This document shows positions 42,364 to 49,735 of a stretch of 64,000 nucleotides of DNA, one piece after another. The position numbers were made by a program, and so were the translations under genes. This DNA comes from Armatimonadota bacterium (GTDB taxonomy: Bacteria; Armatimonadota; SYMT01). Under the pieces are notes generated by a model. The model was not told the origin of the DNA. It did not search any database and was given only the letters and a program-made list of their open reading frames with translations. The stretch covers positions 96,001-160,000 of the forward strand of contig JAWLHY010000004.1 of NCBI GenBank assembly GCA_041690135.1. Direction: 5' to 3'. Numbering within the stretch: the stretch's first letter is position 1; each line of letters opens with the position of its first letter.

Positions 42364-43626
42364 ATGCTCTACCGGTACGGCATTGTGGCGCTCGTCGTCC
42401 TGATGCCCTGGCACGAAATCATCGTACGGCTCTGGCCGCCCCTGCGCATCTGGGATGAGGTGCTTCTCCTGCTGCTGGCCGGGGCGTTGGTCCGCGACTC
42501 CCTGCGCGAGCGAACCCTCCCGGCGCGCCGTCTGCTGCTCCCCATGGCGGCGCTTCTGGGCGTGGCTTCCGTTTCGGGGATCGCAAACCAGCTCCCCCCG
42601 GGACATGCGGCGGCGGGCATCCGGGCGCTCTTTCCGTACATGGTGGTGGGCTTGGCCGCCGCGAAGCTCCGGGAAGAGGCCGCGATCTGGCGAATTCTGC
42701 GGCTGATGGTCCTCATGGGCACGGTGGCGGCCCTCTACGGCATCGCCAGCTATCTCATGTTCCGTGTCTACGATGGCCGCAGGTTCATGCCCCTGCAGCC
42801 GGGTAATCTCGCCGAGGCCGTGCTGCTCTATCCCTACCAGTGCGGCGGCTATCCTTCCGGCTACCGGCTGGTCGGTACCATCCTGAATGACAACTATATG
42901 GGGGACTGGTTGGCCATGCTGGTACCGGTCGCCTTCGCGATGGTGAAGGTGGAAACACTCCCCATCCGCCGAGGCGGGTACCTGCTGGCGGTAATCGTGA
43001 TGACCATTGCCCTGGCCTGGACCTTTTCCCGAGCAGCATACGCCGCATTCGGAGTGGTCCTGCTCCTAACCGCCTGGAGAGTCGACCGCCGCATCCTTCT
43101 AGTCCTACCGCTCTTGGGCATCTCCGCCGCTCTCCTGGCATTTCCGGCGGATGTGTACCGGTTCTCGAATATCAGAGCGACCGAAGGGGGACGCGTGGCC
43201 GCCGTAAGAAAGGCCGCCGCCGTGCAGACGAGAAGTCCGCTTTACGGACGCGGCCCCGGAACTTCCGGCGTGATGGACCTTCACTATGCTCGCATCGCTG
43301 CCCAGATGGGACTGCTCGGGCTCGCAACCTTTGCCTGGCTGCTGCTGGCGAGCCTGGGGCTGACCCGCCGCGATACCCGAAGATCTCCGAATTGCGCCAC
43401 ACTATCGTCCGTATTGCCCATCAGCATGGGGGCTATCATGGTGGCGGCATTCGGTGGAGATGTCTGGGAAATTCCCCAACTGGCCTATACGTTCTGGACG
43501 GTTGCCGGTCTGCTCCAGGCTATGCCCGCAAGTGCAGGGTTCCGGAGCCCTGCTAACGATCCGGAGAGCGGCGATCAAACAATCCGTGTTGTCGCAGCAA
43601 GCGTACCGGTCGGATCCAGGGGGTAA
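42364..43626 (+). CDS. O-antigen ligase (Wzy_C) family membrane protein
   Basis: Multi-TM; RLVGTILNDNYMG, TFSRAAY, PLYGRGPG, YARIAAQMGLLGL. Confidence 0.82.
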   Translation: MLYRYGIVALVVLMPWHEIIVRLWPPLRIWDEVLLLLLAGALVRDSLRERTLPARRLLLPMAALLGVASVSGIANQLPPGHAAAGIRALFPYMVVGLAAAKLREEAAIWRILRLMVLMGTVAALYGIASYLMFRVYDGRRFMPLQPGNLAEAVLLYPYQCGGYPSGYRLVGTILNDNYMGDWLAMLVPVAFAMVKVETLPIRRGGYLLAVIVMTIALAWTFSRAAYAAFGVVLLLTAWRVDRRILLVLPLLGISAALLAFPADVYRFSNIRATEGGRVAAVRKAAAVQTRSPLYGRGPGTSGVMDLHYARIAAQMGLLGLATFAWLLLASLGLTRRDTRRSPNCATLSSVLPISMGAIMVAAFGGDVWEIPQLAYTFWTVAGLLQAMPASAGFRSPANDPESGDQTIRVVAASVPVGSRG

Positions 43627-44776
43627 GCCAGACCAAGCCGGGCGGAAGCGGCAGTTCGGACCAGTCCGGCGTGTTGGGCGATAGAACCCCGCGACAATAT
43701 CGCAACTGGTCCCGGAAGCGCTCCATTCCCAACAGGTCCAGGCGGACGTGCTGGAGAAGACCATGCGGCGTAATCGGAAGCGCACGCAAGCGGCGCGCAT
43801 AGTGCGCCGCTAGAACCTCTGCCGCTGGGTCCTGCGGCAATCGAGCCAGCACCCCTTGCGCAACGGTGCTATCCAATAGCTCGGCGCAAAGCAGCAAGGC
43901 CAACTGCACCCGTCGCAGGGTGCCGCTGCGCTGTGCCAAGCGACAACCATACTCCCAGTCCGCAGTCCCGTTGACGTGCAGGAGGGCCGTCAAATCGACG
44001 GCATAGCCCAGGCAGTCCCAGTGGTGGCGCGCCGCATGGACCGCGAGACAGACCAACTGGTCCTCTGGGGCAAGCGAATAAATGCGCCGCCCGAGCACGA
44101 AGCCCTCCCGGCGGCGTTGCCGAAGTTCCGCCATGTCCAGTTCGGCAAAGTACCGGCTCGAAACGCGCCAGTGCACTTCCAGGAGCACACGGTCCTCGGC
44201 CCGCAGGAACTGGAGGTGGTATCCCTCGCGAATCAGCTGCGCCGTCTGCTCCGGAGTGAGGGAGGGTGTAGCCTGGTAACCCCTCTCCACCAGCAGTTCC
44301 TGAACCCGGAAAAGCTCGGCTTCCGGAACGAGCAGATCCAGGTCCCGGAAGGACCGCTTTTCGGGGCTCCCGTAAAGACTTGCCGCCAATGCGGGTCCTT
44401 TATAGGCAATGACTTCGATCCCATGGCGGCCGAGCAGTTCGACCACCCGAAAAAGCTCCGCGGTCAGTTGCAGAGCTCGACGCGCTCCCTGCGACAGAAG
44501 CGGCGAGAGCTGGCCGCCGAGAGCCTGGGCAGCTTCGCCGTGCAGCGACCCAAGCACTCCTGCCGCCTGGGAAGATACCCGGTGGTACCGGCAGAGGGCA
44601 GCCACGCTTTCCGGAGCAAACGATCCGGTTAAGGCTCTCGCTGCATCCTCCAGAGGACGCGTGCCCAGACCCGCTCGCAGCAGGGTCAGTAGGATTTCAA
44701 AATCGGCATCACGCGTGTCCAGTGGAGTGGCTCTTTCCGTCCGCGAAGGGTTCCCTTCGGCCGATCCCGACCTCAC
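43553..44776 (-). CDS. Nucleotidyltransferase family protein (NTP_transf_5, lasso-cluster type)
   Basis: YKGPALAASLYG..RSFRDLDLLV, LEVHW, LAPEDQLVCLAVHAARH; divergent from the lasso genes; start uncertain. Confidence 0.88.
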   Translation of the reverse strand: MRSGSAEGNPSRTERATPLDTRDADFEILLTLLRAGLGTRPLEDAARALTGSFAPESVAALCRYHRVSSQAAGVLGSLHGEAAQALGGQLSPLLSQGARRALQLTAELFRVVELLGRHGIEVIAYKGPALAASLYGSPEKRSFRDLDLLVPEAELFRVQELLVERGYQATPSLTPEQTAQLIREGYHLQFLRAEDRVLLEVHWRVSSRYFAELDMAELRQRRREGFVLGRRIYSLAPEDQLVCLAVHAARHHWDCLGYAVDLTALLHVNGTADWEYGCRLAQRSGTLRRVQLALLLCAELLDSTVAQGVLARLPQDPAAEVLAAHYARRLRALPITPHGLLQHVRLDLLGMERFRDQLRYCRGVLSPNTPDWSELPLPPGLVWLTPWIRPVRLLRQHGLFDRRSPDR

Positions 44777-48708: not shown

Positions 48709-49735
48709 TCTAGAGTTCCAGCAAGCCTCCCCGTCCCGCTCATACCCCTCGCCACCGACGTATGCAGTCTACGGCGTGTGCTTCGATTCGGATTTCGCGT
48801 TTCGCACACCGCTCCCTCGCGTGACGGGGAAACCCTCCTTTCGTTACCTCTGCCGGGCCGACCGATACCGAGTACCGGTCCCAGCGCCAGAGATCTATCG
48901 GAGCCGAAGGGTCGCTACCGATGGCACTCCCAGCCTTATCCTCCGACAACATGGGGATACGATTGCCTTTTGCCTCCCTGACGGCACCCATCTCGTTCTC
49001 CGTCCGGACCAGATCGAGGCATACGCGGCGGATGAGCGACAGCAAACGATGGCGGAAATCTGCCTACTCGGGACCGTTCTCTCCTACTTGCGAGAGAGGG
49101 AAGGAATCCCTGTTCTCCACGCATCCGTAGTCGCGGTGGAGGGGAAAGGGGTGGCATTCCTGGCAGGAAACGGCGGGGGAAAGAGCAGTTTGGCGGCCGC
49201 TCTGATGCAGAAGGGATATCCGTTGGTGTCGGATGACCTGCTGCCGATCTTGACCCACTCGGGACGCTACGTAGCCGCCGCCGGGTACCCGCAGATGCGC
49301 TTCTGGCCGCAGGAGGCCCGCTTCTTCGTGGATGAGAGCAACAAACTAGAGCGGGTCCATCCGGACTTGGAAAAGCGACGCGTGCCGGTCGGTCTCCACG
49401 GCTTTGGCTCGTTCTGCGCACACGCTCTTCCCCTCTCGGCGATTTACCTACCGGAGCGCCACCCTGCCGCAGAACTCCAAGCACGTGTGGAAATTGTCCC
49501 CGTTCCACCTCGCGAGGCACTCGTTGCCCTGACTTCCCAGTTATTCATCCGCCCCCTCCTTGCCGAGTTCGGTTGGCTGGGCGAGCGGCTGCGCTTCCTC
49601 GCGCAGTTGACCCAGTGTATCCCCGTGCGACGACTACGCTATCCCTCGGGGATGAGCCGATTGGGCGACGTCGTGGAGCGAATCCTCGAAGACTTGGGCC
49701 ACGATCCACACCCAGGGTCCCCTAGCCCAACGTAA
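48701..49735 (+). CDS. HPr kinase-like kinase (lasso-cluster type)
   Basis: LHASVV, Walker A AGNGGGKSS, LVSDD; N-terminal YAVYGV.FDSDF; overlaps the stop of the PRTase-RRE gene. Confidence 0.88.
   Translation: MPDLEFQQASPSRSYPSPPTYAVYGVCFDSDFAFRTPLPRVTGKPSFRYLCRADRYRVPVPAPEIYRSRRVATDGTPSLILRQHGDTIAFCLPDGTHLVLRPDQIEAYAADERQQTMAEICLLGTVLSYLREREGIPVLHASVVAVEGKGVAFLAGNGGGKSSLAAALMQKGYPLVSDDLLPILTHSGRYVAAAGYPQMRFWPQEARFFVDESNKLERVHPDLEKRRVPVGLHGFGSFCAHALPLSAIYLPERHPAAELQARVEIVPVPPREALVALTSQLFIRPLLAEFGWLGERLRFLAQLTQCIPVRRLRYPSGMSRLGDVVERILEDLGHDPHPGSPSPT

Follow-up and report, generated by a model that had tools for sequence, protein, structure and literature searches.

The 64,000-nucleotide (nt) stretch analysed here (the window; Armatimonadota bacterium, contig JAWLHY010000004.1, positions 96,001 to 160,000) carries at 43553–49735 what is, judging from its genes, a real and intact-looking lasso-peptide gene cluster. 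In this cluster, a protein with a phosphoribosyltransferase (PRTase) fold is fused to a recognition element (RRE) of the kind used for ribosomally synthesised peptides that undergo post-translational modification (RiPPs), and the fusion gene is followed by a peptide kinase gene. The listing of open reading frames (ORFs) and hidden Markov model (HMM) scans confirmed six genes at the positions given in the initial annotation:

43553..44776, minus strand: NTP_transf_5 nucleotidyltransferase-like gene, 407 amino acids (aa); PF14907, E 4.4e-47, 161 bits against a cut-off of 31.2
44817 or 44928..45425, plus strand: lasso leader peptidase B2, transglutaminase-like; PF13471, E 1.2e-21, 77 bits against 26
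45394..47274, plus strand: lasso cyclase C, Asn-synthetase-like, 626 aa; PF00733 (Asn_synthase), E 2.1e-48
47326..47508, plus strand: precursor peptide, 60 aa; YxxP...T(-2) leader; AGGAG 8 nt upstream of the ATG
47524..48708, plus strand: PRTase-fold::RRE fusion, 394 aa, TTG start; PqqD domain and AlphaFold2 model
48701..49735, plus strand: HPr-kinase-like peptide kinase, 344 aa; PF07475 (Hpr_kinase_C), under cut-off

The HMM searches on the ORFs (PF14907, NF033537, PF00733, PqqD, and Hpr_kinase_C) bore out the gene set that had been claimed. B2 scored 64.1 bits with NF033537 (lasso_biosyn_B2; cut-off 33). Its longest ORF begins at GTG 44817, and the likelier start is GTG 44928, which is preceded by GGGAG and gives a protein of 165 aa. 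The top NCBIfam model for the cyclase was the lasso cyclase NF033535 (E 1e-106, 358 bits, under the strict cut-off of 525), and the translation shows the VVSGGLDSS ATP-site motif. The 32-nt overlap of C and B2, the 15-nt gap between precursor and fusion, and the 8-nt overlap of fusion and kinase agree with the single operon proposed in the initial annotation; the NTP_transf_5 gene is divergent from this B2-to-kinase operon. The precursor and the fusion lie in one frame, and just a TAA and five sense codons separate the precursor from the TTG of the fusion (47506–47526). The shared frame led us to consider the joining of the two by readthrough, and no evidence for such readthrough was found.

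The identification of the kinase gene was retained, and its start was moved from 48542 to the likelier ATG 48701, which overlaps the fusion stop codon; the kinase thus appears to be translationally coupled to the fusion. PF07475 gave 26.6–26.9 bits (E about 4e-6 to 5e-6) against a cut-off of 33.3, and TIGR04352 (HprK_rel_A) gave E 4.5e-8, far under its cut-off. Within the His / Gly-x-Gly-Lys-Ser / Asp-Asp motif, His140, Gly160, Lys161, and Asp179 were invariant in 34 aligned kinases and Asp178 was kept in at least 90% of them. A predicted complex of the fusion with the kinase scored 0.00, which is uninformative either way. Kinase homologues at three metagenome-assembled loci (L008:2274-3260, L027:2291-3265, and L045:5964-6938) contain one or two in-frame stops in the tblastn match and may be pseudogenes or assembly errors.

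We modelled the fusion protein with AlphaFold2 from an alignment of 36 homologues. The model was confident (predicted local distance difference test score (pLDDT) 92.4, predicted template modelling score (pTM) 0.88), and the following domains were distinguished:

47524..47802, plus strand: N-terminal alpha/beta domain, residues 1–93; confident in the model and barely covered by structural matches
47803..48300, plus strand: type I PRTase-fold domain, residues 94–259; motifs IPRGG (130–134) and VVVDDCAITGAR (163–174)
48442..48696, plus strand: PqqD-type RRE, residues 307–391; PF05402, E 5.8e-12 (residues 330–388), 46.2 bits against 23.4

The N-terminal domain is missing in some shorter relatives, such as the 305-aa P0052. 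Residues 94–259 aligned to HGXPRT (4z1o) with a Z score of 13.3 and a root-mean-square deviation (rmsd) of 2.1 Å over 119 residues at 24% identity, and to TT1426 (1wd5) with a Z score of 11.7 (VIA-align). The type I enzymes HGXPRT and XGPRT (6kp5/1a95) and the uncharacterised TT1426-type protein thus share the fold of this domain at Z 11.7–13.3 and 24–25% identity, and PRT-fold proteins made up 39 of the 50 structural matches listed. A Foldseek search against the PDB returned TbiB1 together with xanthine-guanine, orotate, and hypoxanthine PRTases at E about 1e-5. The RRE matched the lasso B1 proteins TbiB1 (5v1u/5v1v; E 4.9e-15) and TfuB1 (6jx3; E 2.4e-7) in a profile search against the PDB, and its superposition on 6jx3 and 5v1u gave Z 12.6 with an rmsd of 1.6–1.7 Å over 84 residues (VIA-align). 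TbiB1 and TfuB1 are stand-alone proteins of about 85–100 aa, whereas the window RRE forms the C-terminal quarter of a 394-aa protein; their binding target, the YxxP leader motif, is present in the window precursor. On the fusion, the lasso-specific NCBIfam PqqD models scored about 20 bits, under their cut-offs of 70–80. The model thus bears out a real fusion between a PRTase fold and an RRE.

The RRE is present in the cluster solely as this fused domain. When all ORFs of at least 50 aa in 35001–56000 were searched with HMMs, no second PqqD protein or discrete B1 and no ATP-binding cassette (ABC) exporter came up. A B1 hidden in the 5′ extension of the B2 ORF was considered and rejected; the HMMs found none, and just about 215 nt are free there.

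The 5-phosphoribosyl-1-pyrophosphate (PRPP) motif of type I PRTases consists of a hydrophobic run, two acidic residues, and Ser/Thr-Gly, and their pyrophosphate (PPi) loop carries Arg-Gly-Gly. The fusion carries IPRGG (130–134), which we take to be the PPi loop, and LVVVDDCAITGAR (162–174), presumably the PRPP-binding motif. As in type I PRTases, the Arg-Gly-Gly loop and the hydrophobic-Asp-Asp-x-x-x-Ser/Thr-Gly motif stand at the expected places. We counted the conservation of these motifs over 199 relatives of at least 330 aa. Gly133, Gly134, Asp166, Asp167, Gly172, and Trp258 were kept in 199/199, Pro131 in 198, Ser/Thr171 in 197, and Arg132 in 196; Glu260 (194/199), Arg174 (189/199), and Cys168 (182/199) followed. 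A further conserved motif, Trp258/Glu260, therefore stands beside the PRPP-site motifs. Unlike type I PRTases, the fusion has this Trp258/Glu260 motif, a Cys after the Asp-Asp pair, and a fused peptide-binding domain. The pattern argues that the ligand site of the PRTase-fold domain is under strong constraint.

Family searches gave a graded result. Among the 36 aligned relatives, 30 showed a weak match to PF24390 (PRTase-CE) and 19 to PF00156 (best E 9e-7); PRTase-CE is a family seen with retron effectors, according to the available part of PMC13712802. In the ESM Atlas, residues 1–300 reached at best 0.86–0.87 to clusters named "phosphoribosyltransferase-like" and PRTase-CE, which is below 0.9 and serves as a lead only. 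The PRTase named in the initial annotation thus held as a fold, with the model, the Z score of 13.3, motifs kept in at least 196/199 relatives, and the weak matches of the relatives on its side, and did not hold as a Pfam family match. We call the domain PRTase-fold and not a PF00156 member by score, because the window fusion has no PF00156 match even at E 10.

A word-indexed search yielded 89 homologues of the fusion at E ≤ 1e-3, mostly of 330–440 aa, the top ones 36–42% identical across about 90% of the length; no database name among them goes beyond "PqqD family protein". Residues 1–300 of the fusion were run exhaustively with HMMER against 1.84 billion representatives, clustered at 50% identity; this gave 424 matches, of which 393 clusters had E ≤ 1e-10. 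The PRTase-fold domain is practically always accompanied by an RRE, to judge from the lengths of the 150 matches listed (285–454 aa); no ordinary PRTase was reached. Relatives are encoded at 116 loci in species-representative genomes, and 80 of the 116 were taken further. A quick maximum-likelihood tree of 73 loci and the window (seven rows were dropped for a match of <300 residues or an internal stop) covers 14 phylum labels, including Cyanobacteriota, Acidobacteriota, Gemmatimonadota, Halomonadaceae, Spirochaetota, Deinococcota, and methanogens (methanogenic archaea). The window fusion lies on a long branch (0.86), is at most 42% identical to any row of the tree, and pairs weakly with a Thermoanaerobaculia sequence (SH-aLRT 86). 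Among 301 genomes sampled from its own phylum, the full-length fusion occurs in this genome alone, and in 12 others the match covered only the RRE part. These searches point to a widespread, uncharacterised subfamily that is yet rare in its own phylum. With 116 relatives, 393 clusters, and 14 phylum labels, the fusion is no peculiarity of this lineage.

We iterated local HMMs from the window proteins and searched them against all ORFs of the 80 loci. The following counts refer to 44 loci that have 5 kb or more on each side (well-flanked loci). The cyclase was found in 42/44, the kinase in 41/44, the precursor motif in 39/44, a discrete B1 in 24/44, B2 in 22/44, an ABC transporter in 19/44, and NTP_transf_5 in 16/44. 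Both B1 and B2 were present in 20 loci, neither in 18, B2 only in 2, and B1 only in 4; in one "B1 only" locus (L061), the apparent B1 is the fusion's own frameshifted RRE. The window belongs to the rare type with B2 and without a discrete B1. In the 20 loci where a discrete B1 stands next to B2 beside the fusion, the fusion is one more protein with an RRE, a common feature of RiPP tailoring enzymes. Where there is room for it (72 loci), the kinase gene stands immediately downstream of the fusion in at least 44 and elsewhere in the locus in 19 of the other 28. Signs of disturbance are visible at the three well-flanked loci that lack a kinase: in L025 a transposase gene comes immediately downstream of the fusion, in L011 two such genes lie upstream of it, and in L013 the cyclase is split.

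The initial annotation counted the PRTase among three tailoring enzymes. Given the near-constant RRE fusion and the kinase coupling (41/44), the PRTase-fold domain is part of a leader-recognition and kinase module and not a third tailoring enzyme that acts on its own. Pfam annotation of eight representative loci included L004 (Calothrix sp. NIES-4105), which has a discrete PqqD protein, B2, and C together with the fusion, the kinase, and an ABC transporter. L004:2568-15928 is a double cluster in which the cyclase, the B1/B2 pair, and the kinase each occur twice and the two precursor cores are identical, and it also contains a JmjC-like gene, the ABC transporter, and one PRTase-fold::RRE fusion.

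The leader of the window precursor, read directly from the translation, is Y(-17)xxP(-14)xI(-12)...T(-2)Q(-1) with canonical spacing; the precursor HMMs NF033521 (16.8 bits against 19) and NF033528 stayed under their cut-offs. The predicted core is DGGGAFVDGLGTSQI, 15 aa, in which Asp8 would serve as ring acceptor and Gly11-Thr12-Ser13 is the candidate site of modification. A leader-motif scan found precursors in 63 sources, mostly just upstream of the fusion, and 68 distinct cores remained after removal of two false matches (L016, minus strand; L049 at 12712). Asp or Glu occupies positions 7–9 in 66/68 cores. A tail Gly-Ser/Thr is present in 59/68, and in 27 of the 36 short cores the Ser/Thr stands exactly four residues from the end. 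The window core is unusually short among the cores compared; its Gly11-Thr12 stands three residues before the C-terminus, and the precursor ends in GTSQI. A C-terminal Ser, which the initial annotation named as the residue modified in paeninodin- and pseudomycoidin-type clusters, is found in just 5/68 cores, and the window precursor ends in Ile; the tail Gly-Ser/Thr is kept instead.

The cluster works like the paeninodin (pade), pseudomycoidin (psm), and Bradymonas sediminis bsf systems in several respects, as far as gene content and the available parts of the literature allow a comparison, and differs from them in lacking the C-terminal Ser and a discrete B1 and in the added PRTase-fold domain. 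Paeninodin and pseudomycoidin are phosphorylated and phospho-glycosylated lasso peptides of Bacillota. The lasso core machinery, an HPr-kinase-like peptide kinase, and an NTP_transf_5-type gene are common to their clusters and the window, according to the available text of PMC9266682. This agrees with the likeness suggested in the initial annotation, the kinase being Hpr_kinase_C-like and the nucleotidyltransferase matching PF14907 with 161 bits. In that text, the residue modified by the paeninodin and pseudomycoidin kinases is a strictly conserved C-terminal Ser, the clusters contain a discrete B1 as well as an ABC exporter, and no PRTase-fold domain is mentioned for them; the window precursor ends in Ile, and its cluster has neither B1 nor exporter (35001–56000).

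In the Bradymonas system, BsfK phosphorylates the internal core Ser3, an NTP_transf gene is present, and the discrete BsfB1 both speeds the kinase and assists B2, according to the available part of PMC10368454. We propose the same dual role for the window RRE. BsfB1 stands alone as an RRE and has no enzyme-like domain, whereas the window RRE is fused to a PRTase fold; the bsf leader has Ile(-2) and the window leader Thr(-2); and the bsf site lies near the core N-terminus, whereas the conserved Gly-Ser/Thr of the window family lies in the tail (PMC10368454, same part). The tailoring steps listed for lasso peptides in the available part of PMC9266682 are methylation, phosphorylation, phospho-glycosylation, acetylation, citrullination, hydroxylation, and epimerisation. 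Full-text literature searches, which covered main texts (supplementary tables may differ), found no PRTase domain described in lasso or RiPP pathways, so that the earlier statement that no characterised lasso cluster has a PRTase stands within that scope. The nearest literature item was an ADP-ribosylated triceptide (available part of PMC12912966), and the term "ribosyl" does not occur in a 2026 review of interlocked peptides (PMC13352647).

The best single reading, to which we assign a probability of about 45%, is a widespread, uncharacterised lasso-peptide subfamily with leader-guided phosphoribosyl transfer to a tail Ser/Thr or to its phosphate. We prefer it because of the invariant PRPP-type site, the fusion to a peptide-binding domain, and the separate B1 in 20 loci. 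The fusion RRE would bind the YxxP leader and present the precursor to the kinase, in the manner of the discrete BsfB1 with BsfK, and also to B2; the latter role is proposed because the window cluster has no discrete B1. Presentation by the RRE is suggested because the Bradymonas B1 accelerates both the kinase and B2 and because lasso kinases act on leader-bearing precursors (available parts of PMC10368454 and PMC9266682). The kinase would phosphorylate the conserved tail Gly-Thr12/Ser13 and not a C-terminal Ser. The PRTase-fold domain would bind PRPP and move the 5-phosphoribosyl group onto the tail residue or its phosphate, and the NTP_transf_5 protein may extend or cap the added group. B2 would then cut the leader after Thr-Gln, and C would close an 8-residue Asp1-Asp8 macrolactam to give a 15-residue lasso. 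We infer catalysis by the PRTase-fold domain from motif conservation alone. The more specific proposal, that the fusion is a leader-guided peptide phosphoribosyltransferase which works with the kinase and places ribose-5-phosphate on a tail Ser/Thr, possibly phosphodiester-linked to phospho-Ser/Thr, is tentative, with the odds somewhat against it.

Lasso peptides are a much-mined scaffold with few known tailoring steps. If phosphoribosyl transfer is correct, it would be a post-translational modification so far undescribed in RiPPs, spread over about 390 protein clusters and 14 phylum labels. A conserved PRTase-fold domain fused to a leader-binding element and tied to a kinase across hundreds of clusters would mean either a new PRPP-donor modification or leader recognition coupled to a metabolic signal. 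The fusion family offers a ready handle for genome mining, because databases name its members only "PqqD family protein".

Several observations weigh against phosphoribosyl transfer. No PRTase family of Pfam matches residues 1–319 of the fusion, even at E 10, and neither PF00156 nor PF24390 matches the window fusion itself. In hhalign with the profile of the fusion family, the genome's own TT1426-type PRTase gave 29% probability and its adenine phosphoribosyltransferase (APRT) 0.7%, and just the two motifs align. Canonical type I PRTases have a hairpin with the flexible catalytic loop where the model of the fusion has no strand, between helix 133–145 and strand 162–168 (residues 146–161); neither this hairpin nor the purine-specific elements are seen in the model. 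Without the loop hairpin, the site, as modelled, may bind its ligand without transferring it. Known type I PRTases mostly use nitrogen nucleophiles, and an O- or phosphate-linked product would be unusual. The precursor adds to the doubt. Its core is the sole one among the 68 with Asp at position 1 (the tree neighbour L045 has Asn there), cleavage one residue later could give Gly1 and Asp7, and Gly-Ser/Thr readily arises by chance in Gly/Ser-rich cores. Finally, 18/44 loci have no detectable B1 or B2 in the fetched flanks.

The strongest competing reading is that of an adaptor or sensor that binds a ligand. The PRTase-fold domain would then be a non-catalytic binding or docking module whose pocket binds a nucleotide, PRPP, (p)ppGpp, or a phosphopeptide, and which acts as a gate or scaffold for leader binding, the kinase, and B2, so that the chemistry would be limited to phosphorylation and addition by NTP_transf_5. 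The missing hairpin strand suits such a module, as do its obligate fusion to the RRE and its coupling to the kinase. The matches listed for the fold include the non-transferases PurR (1o57, Z 7.8) and PyrR (1w30, Z 10.6) and a ppGpp-bound protein (5vog, Z 12.2), and a plain B1 already stimulates a lasso kinase (available part of PMC10368454). However, the near-total invariance of the PRPP motifs and of Trp258/Glu260 in the 199 relatives exceeds what docking usually needs, and the discrete B1 beside the fusion in 20/44 loci indicates that the fusion is not simply a larger B1. We consider a purely binding role unlikely on balance. The domain might instead be catalytic in another way, making or consuming pyrophosphate for the HprK-like enzyme or removing or exchanging a phospho-linked group, with no ribose in the product. 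PRTase reactions release PPi, HprK/P enzymes can use pyrophosphate and run phosphorolysis, and the fusion and the kinase are translationally coupled and occur together in 41/44 loci. We know of no precedent for such an arrangement, the RRE fusion argues that the peptide itself is the substrate, and the kinase has an ordinary ATP P-loop motif; this possibility is improbable.

Equally little weight falls on the cluster being a horizontally acquired, silent or decaying remnant, or making a non-lasso product, with no mature modified lasso peptide formed. It would account for the single full-length fusion among the 301 phylum genomes, the truncated second copy elsewhere in the genome, the lack of exporter and discrete B1 in 35001–56000, and the short core that starts with Asp. 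The G+C content points the same way, being 61–63% across 44–50 kb and 65–67% upstream (36–42 kb) and 64–66% downstream (50–58 kb). All six ORFs are nevertheless intact with their catalytic motifs, the gene overlaps are preserved, and Asp8 and the canonical spacing of the leader are retained in the precursor. Horizontal acquisition of the cluster as such is plausible, because of the G+C drop and because the fusion was seen in no other of the 300 sampled phylum genomes.

The loci that lack both B1 and B2 (L009, L011, L013, L014, L015, L022, L025, L039, L041, L047, L052, L060, L063, L065, L066, L069, L074, and L079) keep the cyclase, the precursor, and the fusion, and 15 of the 18 keep the kinase (not L011, L013, and L025). 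In L060 (Halomonas sp. A29), a four-gene cassette lies between a pseudouridine-synthase gene and the tryptophan-synthase beta/alpha genes. The number of such loci raises the question of how leaders are removed there. A role of the PRTase-fold domain as a substitute leader peptidase acting through Cys168 was rejected, as no conserved His partner was found; His191 occurs in 96/199 relatives, and Cys168 is replaced in 17/199.

The left flank of the cluster holds unrelated genes (DUF1501, FAD oxidoreductase, DJ-1/PfpI, a CARDB protein, and a Wzy_C-like membrane protein), and the right flank an unrelated SdrD_B surface protein. The 3′ end of the NTP_transf_5 ORF overlaps convergently, by 74 nt (43553–43626), the 3′ end of the 420-aa Wzy_C-like membrane-protein ORF (42364–43626; PF04932, E 1e-3, under cut-off), and one of the two ends may be mis-set. 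The following feature would mark the right-hand border:

49741..49809, minus strand: hairpins resembling terminators, between the kinase gene and the convergent gene for a 1174-aa surface protein; 12-pair stem, T-run on the minus strand

The total of terminator-like sites was not above the shuffled expectation. The window also holds the Planctomycete-type families PSCyt1, PSCyt2, PSD1, and DUF1501, and the genome measures 9.1 Mb; both fit a poorly sampled lineage.

Elsewhere in the genome, a 168-aa ORF at C9:296073-296561 (L082:1537-2043) matches positions ~248–390 of the fusion profile with E 2e-29. This ORF has retained the FAWGEPD-type motif and the RRE but not the PRTase core, sits between an FG-GAP-like surface protein and an esterase-like gene, and looks like a truncated remnant of a second copy. 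Five more PqqD-domain matches were found in the genome (C15:105841-106041, C3:76368-76565, C3:683808-684020, C1:1193934-1194134, and C2:625418-625549), and this organism therefore probably has other RiPP-type clusters.

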